A DNA stretch of 64,000 nt, taken from the NCBI GenBank assembly GCA_017446745.1, contig JAFSQF010000067.1, positions 15,010-79,009 on the forward strand, in the 5' to 3' direction. Made by a program: the position numbers and the translations under genes. The stretch's first letter is position 1. The number at the start of each line of letters is the position of its first letter. This document shows, one piece after another, positions 15,986 through 45,982 of this stretch. This DNA comes from Bacteroidales bacterium (GTDB taxonomy: Bacteria > Bacteroidota > Bacteroidia > Bacteroidales > P3). The notes under the pieces were generated by a model. The model was not told where the DNA came from. It saw nothing but the letters and a program-made list of their open reading frames with translations, and ran no database searches.

Positions 15986-16034
15986 CACTCTCAAAAACGA
16001 ATACACGAAATAATGAAAAACAATATATAACATT

Positions 16035-18116
16035 ATGAAAAAAGTCTTTATAGCAATTGCTTCTGTTGCGCTTTTAGCATCATGCGCCAAGAAGCAGGAA
16101 GATGTCAATTCCGAAAAAATAGTCGAAAAGACTAACATCGAAGTCAAGGATGGGCGCTTCACTCCCGAAGTGATGTGGGCTTTGGGCAAGATGGGCGAGG
16201 TCGCCGTGTCGCCCGATGGTAGCAAGCTGGCCTACACTCTCACCTACTACGATATGGATGAGAACAAGGGCAATGCCGAGATCTACGTCATGCCTACGGC
16301 TGGCGGCGACGCGCAACGCCTCACGGTCAGCGCCAAGAGCGAGTTCAACCCCGCGTGGCAGGACGACAACACCCTGCTCTTCTGCCGTGGCAATGAAATG
16401 CTTAGCATCGATGTGAACACTAATGCTGAGAAGCTCTTGGCCACTTTCGACAACGGCATTGAGGGTTTCAAACTCTCTAATGATAACAAATATGTGCTTT
16501 ACATCTCCCCTATGCCCGTGCAACGCGCCTCGGATGTCGCTCCGCTCTTCGACGGCCTCGACAAGACCACCGGGCGCATCAACGAGGACCTCATGTATCG
16601 CCATTGGGACCAGTGGGTCGACGAATATCCGCAGATTTTCCTTGCCGAGCTTGGCGAGACCCTTGATGTGGAGCACAGCACGGCGATCATCGACAGCACT
16701 TTCGAGTGCCCCATGCGCCCCTGGGGCGGCATCGAGCAGTTCAATTTCTCGCCCGACGGCAAGCGCATTGCCTACACCTGTCGCAAAAAGACGGGTATGG
16801 ACTATGCCCTCTCCACAAACAGCGATATCTACCTTTATGATATCGCTGAAAGGAAAACCGTCAACATCTCGGAAGGCATCATGGGCTACGACCAGAACCC
16901 CGTCTTCAGCCACGACGGCAGCAAGATAGCATGGGAAAGCATGGAACGCGACGGCTATGAGAGCGACAAACTGCGGCTTATGGTCTTCGACCTCACCTCC
17001 GGCGAACGCACCGACTATACCGAGGGCTTCGACTATGGCGTCACCGGCATCAGCTGGACCGACGACGACAGCGAGCTGCTTGCCGTGGTCATGTACCGCG
17101 GCATGGACGAGATTTTCGCTTTCAATGTGGCCGATAAGGGCATCCGCCAAATCAGCCACGGCTATCACAACGTCAACGCCTTCCAACTCGTGGGCAATAA
17201 GATTTATGCCACTCAGGTCTCTATGCAATATCCTGCCGCCGTCTACACCTACAACCTCAGCGACGACAAGCAGGAGGGTACTAAGCTGACCACCTTCAAC
17301 GATGACATCCTCTCGCAAGTACGTATGGGCAAAGTCGAGGAGAACTGGATTAAGACCCACGATGGCAAGGAGATGCTCACATGGCTTATCTATCCTTATA
17401 ACTACGACAGCACCAAGGTCTACCCTGCCCTGCTTTACTGCGAGGGTGGCCCTCAAAGCATGGTCAGCCAGTTCTGGAGCACCCGCTGGAATTTCATGGT
17501 CATGAGTGGCGCCGAGTATTTCATCATAGCCCCCAACCGCCGCGGATGCCCGGGCTTCGGCACCGCCTGGTGTGAGGAAATCAGCGGCGACTACGGTGGA
17601 CTCTGTATGAAAGACTATATGACGGCAGCAGACTATTTCGCCAACAAGCCCCAAATCGACAAGAACCGTATGGGAGCATGCGGCGCTTCGTTCGGTGGCT
17701 TCAGCATCTACTGGCTTGCCGGACATAACGAGAACCATCGCTTTAAAGCCTTCCTGGCACATAACGGCATGTTTAACTTTGAGCAGCAGAGCCTTGAGAC
17801 CGAGGAGCTCTGGTTCACCAACTGGGACCTCGGTGGCCCCTACTGGGCCAACACGCCTCAAACCAAGAAAAGCTACAGCAACTCCCCTCACCTCTTCGTC
17901 GACAAATGGAACACCCCCATCTGCGTGGTGCATAGCGAGTTCGACTTCCGCATAGTGGCTTCGCAGGGCATGGCGGCCTATAATGCCGCCAAACTTAAAG
18001 GCCTCGACGCTCGCTATCTCTACTTCCCCGATGAAACCCACTGGGTGTTGCAGCCCCAGAACAGCCTCCTCTGGCATCGCAATTTCATCGACTGGTTCGA
18101 CAGACATCTGAAATGA
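16035..18116 (+). CDS. S9 family serine peptidase (prolyl oligopeptidase / acylaminoacyl-peptidase type) lipoprotein
   Basis: Lipobox LLASC, an N-terminal beta-propeller region, the nucleophile elbow GASFGGFS and a C-terminal DETHW His region. Confidence 0.9.
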   Translation: MKKVFIAIASVALLASCAKKQEDVNSEKIVEKTNIEVKDGRFTPEVMWALGKMGEVAVSPDGSKLAYTLTYYDMDENKGNAEIYVMPTAGGDAQRLTVSAKSEFNPAWQDDNTLLFCRGNEMLSIDVNTNAEKLLATFDNGIEGFKLSNDNKYVLYISPMPVQRASDVAPLFDGLDKTTGRINEDLMYRHWDQWVDEYPQIFLAELGETLDVEHSTAIIDSTFECPMRPWGGIEQFNFSPDGKRIAYTCRKKTGMDYALSTNSDIYLYDIAERKTVNISEGIMGYDQNPVFSHDGSKIAWESMERDGYESDKLRLMVFDLTSGERTDYTEGFDYGVTGISWTDDDSELLAVVMYRGMDEIFAFNVADKGIRQISHGYHNVNAFQLVGNKIYATQVSMQYPAAVYTYNLSDDKQEGTKLTTFNDDILSQVRMGKVEENWIKTHDGKEMLTWLIYPYNYDSTKVYPALLYCEGGPQSMVSQFWSTRWNFMVMSGAEYFIIAPNRRGCPGFGTAWCEEISGDYGGLCMKDYMTAADYFANKPQIDKNRMGACGASFGGFSIYWLAGHNENHRFKAFLAHNGMFNFEQQSLETEELWFTNWDLGGPYWANTPQTKKSYSNSPHLFVDKWNTPICVVHSEFDFRIVASQGMAAYNAAKLKGLDARYLYFPDETHWVLQPQNSLLWHRNFIDWFDRHLK

Positions 18117-18196
18117 ACCTTTTGAGGAAGCTCGCGAATGGTGACCGTTCTCTCTTTTATTGTCAAATCCTTTTTAACATTAACCTGTAATCCGTT

Positions 18197-18760
18197 ATGA
18201 AACTTATAAAATGCAGCCACTGCGGAAGGCCATTCTATAATGAGGAAAAGGCATGCCCTTACTGTGGGCATGCCACCAACCTCTCCGCCACCAATTTCGT
18301 CACGCGTCCTATTAGTGACCATAAGGCTCACAAATTAATGGAGGACATGCTCTCTGGCAACCTCACTCCTGAGCCTCGCCCGGTTCATGCTGCTCCGCTT
18401 ATTCACGACGACGAGTCCTCCCCCACCCCTCTGGCTGAACCCGCTGAGGTAGAGGAGCAGCAGCCCCTCCCCAATGCTGGCCCGGAACCCGAGGCAACGG
18501 TCGACGAGGCCGCTGAACCTTCCAATGCTGTAAGGGAACGGGCCGACGGCATCGCTACAGCCTTACAACAAACAGAGGAGGTATCCCACGAGGAACATCC
18601 CATTGAAGAACCTAATGCCGCCGACATCGACCATCTGCCACGCAAACGCCGCGGATGGATTTGGATTGTTGTCGTCATCCTTGTCCTTGCCATCGCCGCT
18701 GCCGTATATTTGAAATGGGATTTCGTCTATAGCAAGATTTCCTCCCTTCTCGGCAAATAA
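18197..18760 (+). CDS. zinc-ribbon protein with acidic/Pro-rich linker and C-terminal TM helix
   Basis: CSHCGRPF...CPYCGH zinc ribbon at the N-terminus. WIWIVVVILVLAIAAAVYL transmembrane segment near the C-terminus. Confidence 0.6.
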   Translation: MKLIKCSHCGRPFYNEEKACPYCGHATNLSATNFVTRPISDHKAHKLMEDMLSGNLTPEPRPVHAAPLIHDDESSPTPLAEPAEVEEQQPLPNAGPEPEATVDEAAEPSNAVRERADGIATALQQTEEVSHEEHPIEEPNAADIDHLPRKRRGWIWIVVVILVLAIAAAVYLKWDFVYSKISSLLGK

Positions 18761-18801
18761 ACGTATCTGCCCGGATAACGTTTAATTTCTTACCCTCCCT
18801 C

Positions 18802-18838
18802 AAAAAAATGTGGCTCCACAAGCGAGCCACATTTTTTT
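18802..18838 (+). terminator. rho-independent terminator
   Basis: ATGTGGCTC-loop-GAGCCACAT stem flanked by A7 and T7 runs. Confidence 0.65.
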
Positions 18839-18932
18839 GTAGTTACGCGACCGCAGAATGCGGTCGCCTCCCAGATTACAACCCTGACCGGCACGGCCGC
18901 AGGCGGGGACGCCCGCGTACCACGTCGCATTG
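18833..18932 (+). repeat. GTAG-hairpin REP-like repeat, copy 1
   Basis: TTTTTTGTAGTTAC-GCGACCGC-AGAAT-GCGGTCGC-CTCCCAG, then ACCGGCACGGCCGCAGGCGGGGACGCCCGCGTACCACGTCGCATTG. Repeated at 19069-19174. Confidence 0.85.
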
Positions 18933-19068
18933 TCAAACTAAAAGCTTCGCTACATGTAGGAGGTCGGGCTTCCCAGCCCGACCAATGGCAACCACAGGCA
19001 AGGAGCCCTTCGCATTCGGCGAAGGTGTAACTTTATTTTTCGGGGTACAACATTGGCTCGACAAAATC

Positions 19069-19174
19069 TTTTTTGTAGTTACGCGACCGCAGAATGCGGT
19101 CGCCTCCCAGTTATCGCCTACAGCCCTTACCGGCACGGCCGCAGGCGGGGACGCCCGCGTACCACGTCGCATTG
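19069..19174 (+). repeat. GTAG-hairpin REP-like repeat, copy 2
   Basis: Both conserved blocks are identical to copy 1; only the 12-18 nt linker differs. Confidence 0.85.
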
Positions 19175-19213
19175 GCAAAGCTATCGTTTTGATAGCGCGA
19201 TAAAGATGATGGG

Positions 19214-19245
19214 AAATAAAAAAAAGAGGAAATTGCTTTCCTCTT
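19214..19245 (-). terminator. rho-independent terminator downstream of tRNA-Arg
   Basis: AAGAGGA / TCCTCTT stem (19224-19230, 19239-19245), followed on the minus strand by a T-run. Confidence 0.6.
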
Positions 19246-19252
19246 TTCTTAG

Positions 19253-19326
19253 TGACTCCTGCAGGATTCAAACCTGCAACCTTCTGATCCGTAGTCAGAT
19301 GCTCTATTCAGTTGAGCTAAGGAGCC
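19253..19326 (-). tRNA. tRNA-Arg (anticodon ACG)
   Basis: Hand-folded 74-nt cloverleaf: acceptor GGCTCCT/AGGAGTC, D arm GCTC/GAGC, anticodon stem TCTGA/TCAGA with loop CTACGGA, T arm GCAGG-TTTGAAT-CCTGC, discriminator A. CCA is not encoded. Confidence 0.93.
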
Positions 19327-19353
19327 ATCATTTGTTTCTCTCGAAATCGGTTG

Positions 19354-19361
19354 CAAAAGTA
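19354..19361 (-). promoter_or_regulatory. candidate -7 box (TACTTTTG) for tRNA-Arg
   Basis: The + strand reads CAAAAGTA, 28 nt upstream of the mature tRNA 5' end. The extended match TGCAAAARTACACACTTTT recurs at 41568-41586. Confidence 0.45.
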
Positions 19362-19450
19362 CACACTTTTTCAATACTGACCAAATTTTTTTTTCATTTT
19401 TTCGCGAGAGAGGACTTATCTATTTGAATTAATGGAATAAAAAAATTAAA

Positions 19451-19984
19451 TTATTTTGTTTTTTTGCCGCTATAGTGGTACACTTCCCGGTAAAGAATGT
19501 CGCGCATTTCGTCAAATTCGCCGTCGTCCAGCTCATATTTTGACATCACTATCATTTGTAGTGCTAATGATTTTTTCCCATGATAAGAGGGTTGCCAATA
19601 TTCTTGAGGGTTGCGTGTGAAGCCGAGGTCGGTGTAGAATTCCAAGCGGTGGTCGGCCTGTTCGGTGGATGGCAGTTCGGTTTCCAGCACCACTTGTCCT
19701 GGGTGTTGCGACAGGAAGCTGAGCATAGAGGCTTTCCCCAAGCCGCGGTTGCGGAAGTCGCGGTCGATGGCGAAATGTTCAATGTAGGCAAAATCCTCGA
19801 AGACCCAATAGGTCAATATTCCCAGAGGCTCATCGTCGAGGGTGGCCACAAGGAAATGGAAGCGCTCGTCGCGGTCTTCGAGGCTTCTAAACGGAGGCCG
19901 CTCCTCGTCGGGGAAGGCCGATTCGAAGAGCTCTTTGGCAAAATGATGGTGTCTGCTTTCAGACAGGGGTTCGAAATCTATCAT
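19451..19984 (-). CDS. GNAT family N-acetyltransferase
   Basis: 177 aa with acetyl-CoA binding motif A (FAIDRDFRNRGLGKASM). Confidence 0.85.
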   Translation of the reverse strand: MIDFEPLSESRHHHFAKELFESAFPDEERPPFRSLEDRDERFHFLVATLDDEPLGILTYWVFEDFAYIEHFAIDRDFRNRGLGKASMLSFLSQHPGQVVLETELPSTEQADHRLEFYTDLGFTRNPQEYWQPSYHGKKSLALQMIVMSKYELDDGEFDEMRDILYREVYHYSGKKTK

Positions 19985-20079
19985 ATTATTTGTTTGAATG
20001 TTTTAGCGTTTGAAGTGTTGTATTGTTTTGTAACGGTGTTTTGTGAAGCACTATTATTGGTCTGCTTGCAGGCCTCGGG

Positions 20080-41700: not shown

Positions 41701-42540
41701 ATGACGAAATATATTGGGGCGCATGTCAGCGCAAGCGGGGGCGTGGGGAACGCCATATTGAATGCTGAAGCCATAGGGGCCAACGCTTTTGCTTTATTCA
41801 CGCGGAATCAACGCAGCTGGGTCAGCAAGCCATTGGCCCAAGCGGAGATTGAGGGCTTCAAGACACTACTTGTCGAGAGGGGCTTCGAACCCCGTTACGT
41901 GCTTCCTCACGACAGCTATCTTATCAACCTTGGATCGCCCGACGAGGAGACACTTCAGAAAAGCCGTGCGGCATTCCTCGACGAGATGCGCCGCGCCCAA
42001 CAGCTGGGTCTGACAATGCTCAACTTCCACCCAGGCAGTCATTTGAACAAGATTGGCGAAGAAGAATGCCTGGACCAGATAGCAAGAGAGATAAATCTGG
42101 CGCTGAGCATGACCGAGGGAGTCACGGCCGTGATAGAGAACACCGCAGGGCAGGGCACCAACCTGGGATGGAAATTTGAACATATAGCCCGCATTATCCA
42201 GGGTGTTGACGACAAGAGCCGCGTGGGGGTGTGCATCGACACCTGCCATACCATAGCTGCCGGCTACGACATTTCCACCGAGATGGGATACCAGTTCACT
42301 ATGGACGAGTTCGAGCGTGTGGTGGGCTTCAAATATCTGCGAGCCATGCACCTCAACGACAGCAAGAAAGGTGCCGGCAGCCATGTGGACCGCCACGAAG
42401 TGCTGGGCGAAGGCACCGTAGGCAAGGACTTCTTTGTCCGCATGATGCACGACGAGCGTTTCGACAATATTCCCATTATCTTGGAGACCCCCGACCCAAG
42501 CCGATGGGCCGACGAGATAAAATGGCTGCGAAGCCTTTGA
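41701..42540 (+). CDS. nfo: endonuclease IV (deoxyribonuclease IV)
   Basis: 279 aa. [30 protein letters not shown] and HLNDSK metal-ligand motifs. Confidence 0.93.
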
Positions 42541-42853: not shown

Positions 42854-43690
42854 ATGTATCATTATTATGTTGTTGATGCCTTTACGGAACGTGCTTTCGG
42901 AGGCAATACGGCAGGGGTAGTACTGCTGGAAGAGAAAGAATTCCCATATGAGACCTGGATGCTGAAGGTGGCAGACGAACTGAGGTATTCGGAGACGGCT
43001 TTCGTGCGGCGGCAGGATGACGGAGTGTGGCACCTGCGCTATTTCACGCCCCGCGCCGAAGTGGAGCTCTGCGGTCATGCTACCATAGCCACTTTTGCAC
43101 TGTTGCATTCCTTGGGTCTGGCTTCGGGGCCATGCCGCGCCCTTACGCTGGCAGGCGAGCTGGAGGTGATAGCAGCACCCAAGGTGATGATGCAGATGGC
43201 AAAGCCTCGGATCATAAGTACCATAGAGGCGACGGCAAGCGTCTATGATGCCGTCGGCATACACGGATATGAACCGGAGCTGCCTGTGCAGGTGGTAAGC
43301 ACCGGCCTGCCCGATATCATGCTGCCGGTGCCATCGGTGGAGGTGTTAAATACCCTCCAACCCAATATGGAGGCTATAGCAGCCTTGACGGCTCATTATG
43401 AAGCTATAAGCATCCATCCTTTTGCTTTGTCGGACGACGGATATACGGCTCATGTGCGCGACTTCGCCCCGAGGTGCGGCGTGCCGGAAGAGAGCGCCAC
43501 GGGGACAGCCAATGCTGCCCTTACCCATTTCCTCGCCGCTCATGCCGTTATAGCGGAGGGGGAGCACAGTTTCCTGCAAGGCGAAGCCATGGGGCGGCCC
43601 TCCACAGTGGCCACACGCCTTGATGCCGACGGCACGGTATGGGTGGGGGGCTCCGCAGCCATCGTGGCAGAAGGGGCATTGTTGGCATAG
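42854..43690 (+). CDS. PhzF family isomerase
   Basis: Start set at MYHYYVVDAFTERAFGGNTAGVVL. Also ELCGHATIA and ESATGTANAAL active-site contexts. Confidence 0.88.
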   Translation: MYHYYVVDAFTERAFGGNTAGVVLLEEKEFPYETWMLKVADELRYSETAFVRRQDDGVWHLRYFTPRAEVELCGHATIATFALLHSLGLASGPCRALTLAGELEVIAAPKVMMQMAKPRIISTIEATASVYDAVGIHGYEPELPVQVVSTGLPDIMLPVPSVEVLNTLQPNMEAIAALTAHYEAISIHPFALSDDGYTAHVRDFAPRCGVPEESATGTANAALTHFLAAHAVIAEGEHSFLQGEAMGRPSTVATRLDADGTVWVGGSAAIVAEGALLA

Positions 43691-43703
43691 ACAATGGCTT
43701 GGC

Positions 43704-43735
43704 GGGTTGCAACAGTGTTGCAACATACGGAACGG
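43704..43735 (+). repeat. GTTGCAAC-type REP hairpin, upstream copy
   Basis: GGGTTGCAAC-AGT-GTTGCAAC-ATACGGAACGG. Confidence 0.85.
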
Positions 43736-43909
43736 AGGAAACAGCAAAAAAACAGAGCAAAAAAAACAGAGCAAAAAAAGCAAAAAAAAACAAAAACAGC
43801 AAAAAAACAGAGCAAACAGCAAAAAAAAGCTTAAAAAAAATCAAAAAGCTTAAAAAAAAATCAAAAAGCTTAAAAAAAATCAAAAAAAACTTAAAAAAAC
43901 AGCAGAAAG
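43736..43909 (+). repeat. A-rich low-complexity tract with internal 19-20-bp units
   Basis: Almost no T or G-runs on the + strand. AAAAAAACAGAGC occurs 3 times, and GCTTAAAAAAAATCAAAAA twice plus a degenerate third. Confidence 0.85.
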
Positions 43910-44959
43910 ATGGATTTGGAAACCTTCAAACGGCAAGAGGCCTTTGCCGGAGAGCTAAAGCCTTCAATGAAGCGCCGATGCGTGGCCCACGACTACAGCC
44001 AGCGAGGGATGTATATGGTGACGCTTGCCACAGAAGGGCGAAAGAAACTGTTTGGAATACTGACAGGGCGCAGCGAAGGCGTTCCCGGAGCTCCTGATGC
44101 ACCAGGGATAGCATTGACGGAACTGGGGAAAGAGGTGGAACGCTGTTGGAATGCAATACCTCATTACTATCCGGAGGTTAAGGTGATAGCACTTCAGATA
44201 ATGCCCGACCACATTCATGGCATAATTTTCGTAACACGCCGGATGGAGGGGAAAGACCTCGGGGATGTGATAAAAGGGTTTAAGGTGGGTTGCAACAAAG
44301 CCATGCGCAGGCTGGAGGGCGATGAATATGAGGTTGCATCAATGATGCAACATACGGAACGGCAAAAACATACGGGGCATGAGAGAGGGCTTGTTTTTGA
44401 GAGGGGCTACAACGATAGGCTCCTGCTTAGAGAGGGACAGCTGCAGCGATGGAAAGATTATCTGGCGGACAATCCACGCCGATTGTTGGCTAAACAAGAG
44501 CATCCGGATCTTTTCCGTGTGATTTTTGGCATTCACGTTGCCGAACAAAGTTTTGCGGCGATAGGGAACCGTTTTTTGCTCGACAGGCCCTATAAGCTGC
44601 AGGTGCAATGTTCGCGCAGCTTGACAGTTGCGGAAGTGGAACAAGAGAAGGAACGTTACCTGGCAGAGGCTCGGCAGGGGGCCGTGCTGGTGTCTCCGGC
44701 CATAAGTGAGGGGGAGAAAGCGGTGATGCGTGCGGCCCTCGAAGCCAGGATGCCATTGATATTCCTCTCGCCCAACAGCTTCACGCCATTCACAAAACCC
44801 GGAGGGGAGTACATAGAAGCCTGCTCACGAGGAGATTTTCTGATTCTTGCGCCATGGCCGGAGAGGAGGAACACGAAGGCCATAACGAGAGAAGAATGCC
44901 TGATGCTGAATAGGATGGCGAAGGAGATATGTGGTTGCAACGGTGTTGCAACATACTGA
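43910..44959 (+). CDS. REP-associated tyrosine transposase (RAYT)-like HUH/Y1 protein with about 150-aa C-terminal extension
   Basis: HDYSQRGMYMVTLAT..KLFG, HUH motif MPDHIHGIIF and Tyr motif WKDYLADNPRR, in canonical order. Flanked by cognate-looking hairpins. Confidence 0.75.
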   Translation: MDLETFKRQEAFAGELKPSMKRRCVAHDYSQRGMYMVTLATEGRKKLFGILTGRSEGVPGAPDAPGIALTELGKEVERCWNAIPHYYPEVKVIALQIMPDHIHGIIFVTRRMEGKDLGDVIKGFKVGCNKAMRRLEGDEYEVASMMQHTERQKHTGHERGLVFERGYNDRLLLREGQLQRWKDYLADNPRRLLAKQEHPDLFRVIFGIHVAEQSFAAIGNRFLLDRPYKLQVQCSRSLTVAEVEQEKERYLAEARQGAVLVSPAISEGEKAVMRAALEARMPLIFLSPNSFTPFTKPGGEYIEACSRGDFLILAPWPERRNTKAITREECLMLNRMAKEICGCNGVATY

Positions 44960-45032
44960 ACGGGGAGGGTTGCAACGGTGTTGCAACATACTGAACGAGG
45001 AGGGTTGCAACGGTGTTGCAACATACTGAACG
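44933..45032 (+). repeat. three head-to-tail GTTGCAAC-type REP hairpins, 35-bp period
   Basis: GGTTGCAAC-GGT-GTTGCAAC-ATACTGAACG at 44933, 44967 and 45002. The first copy contains the last 8 codons and the TGA of the RAYT-like ORF. Confidence 0.9.
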
Positions 45033-45325
45033 AAAAAGAGGGGCGGCGAAACAATAAAAAAAACAGAAGGACGTTAAATAGAAAAAAAACTAAAAAAGAG
45101 AAATAACGCAGGGAGGGGGGGGCACAGGAAAAAGAGAGAAAACGCAGGAAAAAGAAAAAAATGCTGGAAGAGAAAATAGACGCAGGAAAGAAAAAAAAAC
45201 ACTGAAAAAGAGAAAAAAAAACACAGAGAAGAGGGAAAAACGCTGAGAGAAAAAACACAGAAAAACAAACAGAAAAAAAACAGAGAAAACAAACAGTGAA
45301 AACAAAACAGAAAAAAGATAAAGAA
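45033..45325 (+). repeat. purine-rich (A/G) low-complexity tract
   Basis: 293 bp of AAAAAGAGA / AACGCAGGAAA / AAACACAGA-type words, with almost no T on the + strand. Ends at the LolA-like start codon. Confidence 0.85.
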
Positions 45326-45982
45326 ATGAAGAGAATTTTTGTGATGCTTATGATGCTTGTGGCGGGGATGACAACGGCTATGGCTCAGATAACGCATACC
45401 GCCAAAGGGCATGTGGACCAGAATGCCGAAAGGATATTGAAGAAAGCAGAGCAAGCCATAGCTTCGGATGCAGTATCGTTCACTGTGACAATGGTCAGCA
45501 AGGATGCCAATAAAAAAGAGACGGCACGTATGAAGGCTGATGTGCTTTATAAAAAAGGCAAATATAGGGTGAGTTTTGAAGGAAATATCATCTATTGTGA
45601 CGGAGAGGCGACGTGGCATTGGAATAAGGAGAACGATGAGGTGGTGGTCAACAAGATGAGTGATGGTGCCGACGACCTCATGAATCCGGCCTCTATATTG
45701 GCTAATTATAGCAAGAATTTCAATGCCAAATATATACGTCAGGAGGAGAATGGCACAGCTGTGATAGACCTTACGCCCAAGAAGACAAAGAGCTACTACA
45801 AAATCAGGCTTTTCGTCAATGCCAACAACGGGCAGCTACAGCGTATGGAGATGCACAACTACGATTCGACCAGTGGAGAATATCAGATTAGCAACTACAA
45901 GAAAGGCATGAAAACGGCTGATAGCGACTTCATGTTCCCCAAGGCGCAGAATCCCAAAGTGGAGATAATAGATATGAGATGA
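45326..45982 (+). CDS. LolA-like outer-membrane lipoprotein carrier family protein
   Basis: Signal peptide MKRIFVMLMMLVAGMTTAMAQ, with a half-barrel pattern (FTVTMVS...YKKGKYRVSF...VIDLTPKK...KIRLFVN). Confidence 0.7.
   Translation: MKRIFVMLMMLVAGMTTAMAQITHTAKGHVDQNAERILKKAEQAIASDAVSFTVTMVSKDANKKETARMKADVLYKKGKYRVSFEGNIIYCDGEATWHWNKENDEVVVNKMSDGADDLMNPASILANYSKNFNAKYIRQEENGTAVIDLTPKKTKSYYKIRLFVNANNGQLQRMEMHNYDSTSGEYQISNYKKGMKTADSDFMFPKAQNPKVEIIDMR

Follow-up and report, generated by a model that had tools for sequence, protein, structure and literature searches.

Some genes for HUH endonucleases hold within their coding sequence the hairpin that their own product recognises and cleaves. In phiX174 gene A and pT181 repC these sites are the origins of rolling-circle replicons, and the enzymes act preferentially in cis. 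In IS200, hairpins limit expression of the transposase. For RAYT genes, in-frame REPs have been described in the tnpAREP genes of subclass 2.4, corresponding to Bertels group 4 (Quentin, Siguier, Chandler and Fichant 2018, BMC Genomics 19:475, PMC6006769); in its passages on this subclass that paper treats the insertions, which occupy the loop between beta3 and alphaC, as tolerated. REPs have also been found in ordinary genes, where in-frame translation of the repeat is possible and where it may provide a stop codon (Di Nocera et al. 2013, PMC3733652).

The window analysed here is a stretch of 64,000 nt from a Bacteroidales genome (assembly GCA_017446745.1, contig JAFSQF010000067.1). An earlier note, made from its letters alone, had pointed to a REP-like hairpin with an exact REP tail inside a RAYT-like coding sequence. 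We confirm this element, in frame at 44333-44362, and describe its conservation, its inheritance and its relation to the repeats outside the gene. In-frame REPs in RAYT genes are already known; new, relative to the passages on subclass 2.4, are the different loop, the fusion of the enzyme family to a DprA-like domain, the covariation, and the persistence of the internal hairpin where a REP family is lacking.

Results

The gene encodes a divergent RAYT-like protein with a DprA-like domain

The gene product of 349 aa matched the NCBIfam profile REP_Tyr_transpos (NF047646) with an E value of 9e-10 and 38.6 bits, under the cut-off of 80, and the Pfam profile Y1_Tnp (PF01797) below threshold (E 0.14, 12.8 versus a cut-off of 23). 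A PDB sequence search with the family profile gave no match, and only fold comparison worked. In the AlphaFold2 model (mean pLDDT 82.8) the N-terminal domain was matched by Foldseek with probability 1.0 to the TnpA proteins of ISDra2 and IS608 and to 4ER8, the E. coli RAYT-REP complex (rmsd 3.6 A over 166 columns for the latter), while residues ~200-349 (window 44507-44959) adopt a DprA/ShosA-like fold (Foldseek E 9e-7 to 1e-3). H101, H103, Y184, N188 and P189 are invariant among the 29 homologs of alignment A1, and the Y-x3-N-P form of the Tyr motif is the form given for RAYTs in the motif description of Quentin et al. (PMC6006769). Since the curated profile thresholds were missed, the protein is, judging from its sequence, a divergent relative of the RAYTs. 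A database search returned >3,300 homologs of the 349-aa protein, and the enzyme family is known mostly from gut and rumen Bacteroidales. Our literature search found no papers linking RAYT or HUH Y1 proteins with a DprA-like domain.

Residues 140-155 form the only internal stretch of low confidence in the model and are probably disordered. This loop follows the helix 117-135 (alphaC) and precedes the strand 163-173 (beta4), and it coincides exactly with the peptide encoded by hairpin and tail. The element lies, as placed earlier, in the variable linker that separates the HUH motif from the Tyr motif (Table 1).

Table 1. Positions of the RAYT-like gene, its internal hairpin and the neighbouring repeats, in window coordinates.
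Feature	Position	Strand	Basis
RAYT-like Y1 HUH gene, 349 aa, C-terminal DprA-like domain	43910..44959	+	ORF, profile match, fold
HUH motif codons, H101-I-H103	44210..44218	+	sequence; invariant His in alignment A1
Codons of Y184-L-A-D-N188-P189, presumed catalytic Tyr motif	44459..44476	+	invariance in A1
Codons of the hairpin-holding loop, residues 140-155	44327..44374	+	AlphaFold2 pLDDT < 50
Internal hairpin GTTGCATC-AAT-GATGCAAC	44333..44351	+	sequence reading, repeat search, folding
REP tail ATACGGAACGG	44352..44362	+	same letters as upstream REP tail
GGTTGCAAC, described earlier as a half-site	44288..44296	+	chance coding, conserved Gly-Cys-Asn
Upstream canonical REP, GTTGCAAC-AGT-GTTGCAAC with tail ATACGGAACGG	43706..43736	+	sequence, repeat search
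Three tandem canonical REPs, 35-bp period, starts 44934, 44969 and 45004	44934..45034	+	sequence, repeat search

The internal hairpin differs from the flanking REPs by one compensated pair

The octamer arms of the internal hairpin, GTTGCATC (44333-44340) and GATGCAAC (44344-44351), are exact reverse complements separated by AAT (44341-44343) and form a stem of 8 bp with a 3-nt loop, or alternatively of 9 bp with a 1-nt loop. Together with the tail ATACGGAACGG, which fits the REP tails of the same genome (roughly A[TC]AC-N-[GA]-[GAT]-AC), they are read in frame within the ORF 43910-44959(+), the product being V142 A S M M Q H T E R Q152. Folding as ssDNA gave -7.3 kcal/mol for the internal hairpin versus -7.5 for the flanking copies. 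A search of the window with the pattern GTTGCAACNNNGTTGCAACATAC, allowing up to 3 mismatches, returned 8 matches, which reduce to 5 sites as some were counted on both strands; in 100 shuffles the expected number was zero.

Outside the gene the repeat has the canonical form GTTGCAAC-NNN-GTTGCAAC-ATAC(G/T)GAACG. One such copy lies upstream of the gene and three in tandem at its 3' end, the one at 44934 supplying the last codons and the stop codon. The genome (2.79 Mb in 117 contigs) holds 22 canonical doublets, so that cognate REPs both flank the gene and recur elsewhere in the genome, which is the criterion for a REPtron. All 22 dispersed copies have the core GCAACA, and the internal core GCATCA is unique in this genome. 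The paired A-to-T and T-to-A change described earlier, which leaves the stem fully paired, is best read as derived and compensated because the closest relatives (L047, L048, L059, L076 and L077) all carry the canonical core, with GTTGCAAC on both arms. A locus from another sample with 97% nucleotide identity (L156) has the same variant internal hairpin and the same canonical flanks; therefore, the variant is not an assembly error. The window represents the single clear locus at which canonical REPs flank the gene while the internal core differs, by one compensated pair, with pairing and the full tail kept.

The letters of a further half-site, reported in the earlier note at 44288-44296, are present but reflect chance. 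They encode a conserved Gly-Cys-Asn, for which most orthologs use GGC TGC AAC, and the codons of GGTTGCAAC occur in 5 of 71 orthologs versus 4.6 expected from codon usage. As observation and expectation agree, we regard the half-site as a chance product of coding and reject it.

On the + strand, A-rich low-complexity tracts lie on both sides of the module of RAYT-like gene and REPs (43737-43909 and 45035-45300). The upstream tract differs from that of L156 by two indels (~36 and ~22 bp) and therefore changes quickly.

The linker hairpin is conserved at the level of nucleic acid

In an alignment of 120 of the >3,300 homologs the linker shows a recurrent peptide V-A-T-x-L-Q-H-T, the codons of which (GTT GCA ACn nnG TTG CAA CAT ACn) are the canonical repeat read in frame. 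DNA was collected for 155 loci from species genomes, from the same taxonomic family and from rumen metagenomes, giving 96 distinct genes. Of these, 82 carry a perfect hairpin in the linker, with loop position and codon phase identical throughout, and the density of perfect hairpins is 6.3/kb in the linker, compared to 0.15/kb in the rest of the ORF and 0.19/kb in the flanks. Hairpin and adjoining sequence can be summarised as GT-n-TGTTGC-[4 variable]-n-[4 complementary]-GCAACA-n-AC-RGRAC.

Covariation was assessed for 83 distinct sequences in an anchored alignment, with shuffle tests that ignore kinship. In these tests 96.5% of the stem cells are paired versus 75.5% in shuffles, and the covariation score of 0.581, versus 0.174, was reached by none of 500 shuffles. 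Nine of the ten stem pairs have changes on both sides, pairing collapses when the partner is slid by any offset, and the stem continues outwards for two more pairs (8-34 and 9-33). Compensated switches are found even between close relatives, as in GCGACC/GGTCGC versus GCAACC/GGTTGC, and in GCGACT versus GTGACT, which has arisen twice. Sequence itself is conserved in the outer stem GTTGC/GCAAC and in the tail, and this in genes whose proteins share only 55 to 70% identity, whereas in the inner stem pairing alone is conserved.

The encoded peptide follows the stem. Its variants include VAT-x-LQ, VAT-Q-SQ, VAV-L-QQ, VAL-x-TQ, VVA-x-PQ and VAS-M-MQ, so that the third residue may be T, V, L, A or S and the fifth L, S, Q, T, P or M, replacements that are non-conservative and accompany changes in the stem. 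Moreover, the stem Val is encoded by GTT in 70 of 71 genes, versus 11% elsewhere in the same genes, where it is the rarest Val codon; for the stem Gln, 68 of 74 genes use CAA, versus 35% elsewhere in the same genes, and 77 of 83 genes have G at one third-codon position despite the many different amino acids encoded there. Compensated stems, non-conservative changes of the peptide and forced codons together indicate that the constraint acts on the nucleic acid and not on the peptide. This is the opposite of the pattern by which a chance resemblance was to be recognised, namely orthologs that conserve the peptide but lose hairpin or tail: here the hairpin is kept by compensatory changes and the peptide shifts.

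Some family members (L118, L148, L133, L089 and the protein P0038) carry in-frame arrays of 3 to 6 copies of hairpin or tail, with periods that appear to be 21 to 27 nt as inferred from the repeated peptides. Tandem periods inside genes are multiples of three only, and beside the gene they are 35 and 77 bp. In a branch with ~33% identity, designated 'YHER' (L008, L010, L012, L014, L015, L019 and L022), the linker hairpin has a 4-nt loop and matches the flanking repeats of that branch; L008 has six such flanking copies. The same branch shows another hairpin with covariation, which falls within the codons of its conserved peptide HF(A/S)RIF.

The hairpin is an old insertion inherited with the gene

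Distant homologs from Verrucomicrobia, Kiritimatiellae and some Bacteroidaceae, as well as L005 and L024, have a short linker without any hairpin. An alignment of orthologs had been proposed to reveal whether the segment is an indel, and since these outgroup homologs lack it, the segment is an old in-frame insertion. Comparison across the family shows that the hairpin entered the loop once or a few times in an ancestor of a large Bacteroidales clade and that it was then passed on vertically together with the gene. Vertical inheritance is supported because the class of the stem core clusters on the protein tree (~28 changes compared to 65 with shuffled labels), because trees of the N-terminal and C-terminal halves agree, and because the synteny with nfo is kept. 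Between the half-trees there were 2 strong conflicts in 31 splits, and 1 in 22 in a control that compared two halves of the C-terminal part; the hairpin as a point of recombination or domain swap was rejected, as the half-trees conflict no more than this control. The gene nfo, encoding endonuclease IV, is a neighbour of the RAYT-like gene across the genus. In the window it occupies 41701-42540, and it is likewise found at the related loci L048, L052, L056, L060 and L078; a PhzF-like gene separates the two in the subclade to which the window belongs.

The earlier note had offered an in-frame insertion and a cis site for the gene's own product as alternatives. Each proved partly right: an old insertion was followed by vertical inheritance during which the nucleotides were constrained, as would fit a cis site on which the gene's own product acts.

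Internal hairpin and flanking copies often share their variable core

A flank copy that matches the internal hairpin occurs in about a third of the relatives. Among the 50 loci with any perfect flank hairpin, flank and internal hairpin share the variable core in 23 (exact inner 6 nt) to 29 (same class), whereas permutation gave means of 3.7 to 7.9 and maxima of 11 to 15. These matches occur in at least 8 core classes and at differing flank positions. The shared repeat unit is ~38 nt long, the copies are mostly in direct orientation, and REP copy number is low, ranging from 1 to ~25 per genome.

The internal hairpin is also found where matching repeats are lacking. In G119, a genome that is 100% complete, there is no other hairpin with the outer stem of the family among the matches listed, and in G067 the single other one among the matches listed has a different core. 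Taking the matches listed, at least two genomes and the paralog C37 thus keep an internal hairpin without a matching dispersed copy. This paralog (C37:18054-19217(-)) and another one in the window's own genome (C98:18989-20227(+)) are ~54% identical and have much longer, Pro/Gln-rich linkers with other perfect hairpins. Those of C37 are unique in the genome; the C98 hairpin GGCGAGGC-GGT-GCCTCGCC has dispersed copies at C4:44702 and C6:14073, with a TACGGA tail. Related genomes contain scattered single copies as well, in which the usual tail follows a core that is compensated in another way. One of them, L157 (G047:C186:14675-14693), reads GTTGCATC-GGT-GATGCAAC-ATACTGAGC and thus has the same compensated core as the window's internal hairpin, whereas the RAYT gene of that genome has the canonical core.

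The cumulative GC skew of the window has its minimum at ~16000-20000 and then turns positive, which suggests a replication origin region there. In the window's own genome the strand that reads from REP hairpin to tail is locally G-rich in 16 of 20 oriented hits, a small sample in which some were counted repeatedly; in the same 20 hits, with the same repeated counting, there was no bias relative to the coding strand (0.54). In 20 other genomes the orientation of the RAYT gene relative to local GC skew was positive in 5, negative in 9 and near zero in 6. As no consistent relation emerges across these genomes, a strictly lagging-strand-template mechanism is unsupported for the internal copy.

Discussion

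A proposed resident recognition site in the enzyme gene

We give an even chance to the reading that the REP-like hairpin belonging to the gene's own product has in this segment a resident copy, kept in frame, a home copy from which local ones were seeded. The product would act as a RAYT-type Y1 HUH ssDNA endonuclease to which a DprA-like domain is fused. It would recognise the hairpin when the DNA of the gene is single-stranded, bind it, and possibly nick and rejoin it, and the gene would therefore never be without a copy of its site. The home copy would be the persistent member of the repeat family, and the copies beside the gene and elsewhere would most likely have been seeded by a cis-preferring enzyme from it or from its contemporaries. 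In the window, the home copy would since have drifted by one compensated pair while pairing and tail were kept. The direction of copying, from the internal hairpin to the flank or the reverse, is a matter of parsimony only.

The resident-site reading is supported by the density of hairpins in the linker, their covariation and codons, the context of the loop, the inheritance of the element and the core matches with the flanks. It is further supported by the persistence of the hairpin without a family, by local amplification (three tandem copies downstream in the window, five upstream in L008, arrays in L118, L148 and L089), and by the fold match to Y1 transposases that bind hairpins, including 4ER8. 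Against it stands that the GCATCA variant has no seeded copy in its own genome. A bolder version, which we put forward tentatively and consider unlikely, holds that the internal hairpin would be the primary, obligatory substrate of a domesticated HUH-DprA-like enzyme and the gene a self-contained unit: the enzyme would load on and nick its own coding sequence at an origin-like cis site, by analogy with phiX174 gene A, and the flanking and dispersed REPs would be by-products seeded from the gene. If this were true, REP families in these bacteria would originate within the transposase gene and would not have invaded it from outside.

Nucleotide-level constraint and cognate identity would equally be expected of an autoregulatory cis site, at which the enzyme binds the hairpin of its own gene, as extruded ssDNA or as mRNA, and thereby limits full-length transcript or protein of a potentially harmful nuclease. 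The persistence of the hairpin without other copies fits such a function tied to the gene itself, and the control of the IS200 transposase by hairpins offers a parallel. However, no terminator-like or promoter-like feature was found at the hairpin site, and autoregulation alone leaves unexplained both the variable core shared with the flank copies and the tandem arrays beside the gene; we hold it to be rather unlikely as the explanation. A structure acting in the mRNA on translation or stability, through ribosome pausing between the halves of the catalytic domain or protection from RNase and unrelated to DNA recognition, is very unlikely in our estimation. The hairpin does lie on the transcribed sense strand in every gene, and G.T is somewhat commoner there than A.C (26 versus 9, 12 of the 26 G.T coming from one clade), but Watson-Crick pairing accounts for 652 of the 664 cells in the eight core pairs. 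Such strictness would be unusual in an RNA helix, and this near-exclusive pairing leans towards DNA over RNA. Moreover, the same element with its tail is found outside genes and beside the gene, and no Rfam covariance model matched within 43500-45400 at E <= 1.

Short palindromes do arise randomly, yet the probability of a chance resemblance between codons and REP is negligible: zero matches were expected in shuffles, and the family-wide conservation, with its covariation and the retention in 82 of 96 genes, refutes it. A functionless REP might instead be tolerated in a permissive loop, its palindrome maintained by a mutational bias, in which template switching between the arms of the quasi-palindrome transfers a change in one arm to the other, and its frame by selection on the protein, as would agree with the low-impact insertions that Quentin et al. 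(PMC6006769) see in their passages on the in-frame REPs of subclass 2.4 and with the REPs inside other genes (PMC3733652). Homologs without the linker exist, and the segment is therefore dispensable for the fold; compensated singletons at dispersed sites indicate that compensation also occurs outside the gene and could be partly mutational, by template switching. But template switching keeps pairing, not sequence, and the sequence conservation of outer stem and tail against a strong codon preference argues against a purely mutational explanation. The hairpin is, in addition, retained in most genes of the family, whereas flanking copies are sporadic. Mere tolerance appears unlikely to us.

The case bears on the host function of RAYTs and on the birth and persistence of REP families. 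The copy of the repeat that is nearly always present in this enzyme family is the one inside the enzyme gene, and it stays paired and conserved in sequence against codon preference even where the genome has no matching repeat elsewhere. The hypothesis that the enzyme recognises its own gene comes with a compact test object, an oligonucleotide of 30 nt and a protein of 349 aa. Furthermore, the locus is a clean case of nucleic-acid structure overriding coding in a loop of low model confidence that is probably disordered, and annotation and dN/dS analyses would misread the nucleic-acid constraint in this loop.

Comparison with described systems

The N-terminal domain of the window protein has its best structural matches in the TnpA proteins of IS200/IS605 elements (IS608, ISDra2), which recognise ssDNA hairpins, and the repeats of the window family, mostly direct and on one strand, resemble the LE and RE of those elements. 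Unlike these multi-copy insertion sequences, the window gene resides stably in the chromosome, where its synteny is conserved, and one hairpin lies inside the gene rather than at element ends. The placement of a putative recognition hairpin in an HUH endonuclease gene likens it to phiX174 gene A and pT181 repC, which differ in being origins of rolling-circle replicons, the window gene being chromosomal. With the E. coli REPtron (TnpA-REP, 4ER8) the locus shares the Y1 HUH fold and a gene flanked by cognate hairpin repeats. At the foot of the hairpin, the conserved short sequence is GTAG in E. coli and GT-n-T / A-n-AC in the window family, which also differs in its low number of REP copies, the extra DprA-like domain, the profile scores below cut-off and the cognate hairpin within the coding sequence.

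The closest likeness in gene organisation described for subclass 2.4 in the passages of Quentin et al. (PMC6006769) consists of in-frame internal REPs, a length-variable region with short repeats, and REPs that also flank the gene. We nevertheless reject membership of this subclass, as characterised there, on motifs, length and loop position: its motifs are NH[IFV]H, WQ and YIxNNP versus DH[IL]H, F-E/A and Y[LI]xDNP in the window family, its proteins have ~194 aa versus ~350 aa with the DprA-like C-terminal domain, and its insertions lie in the beta3/alphaC loop versus alphaC/beta4 here. Relative to the same passages, the window family adds compensatory covariation, forced codons, persistence without a REP family and the co-variation of the internal hairpin with flanking copies. 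Finally, the first downstream REP, which gives the window gene its stop codon, recalls the REPs described by Di Nocera et al. (PMC3733652); those are sporadic in unrelated genes, whereas in the window family the element is fixed at one position in the gene of the cognate enzyme.
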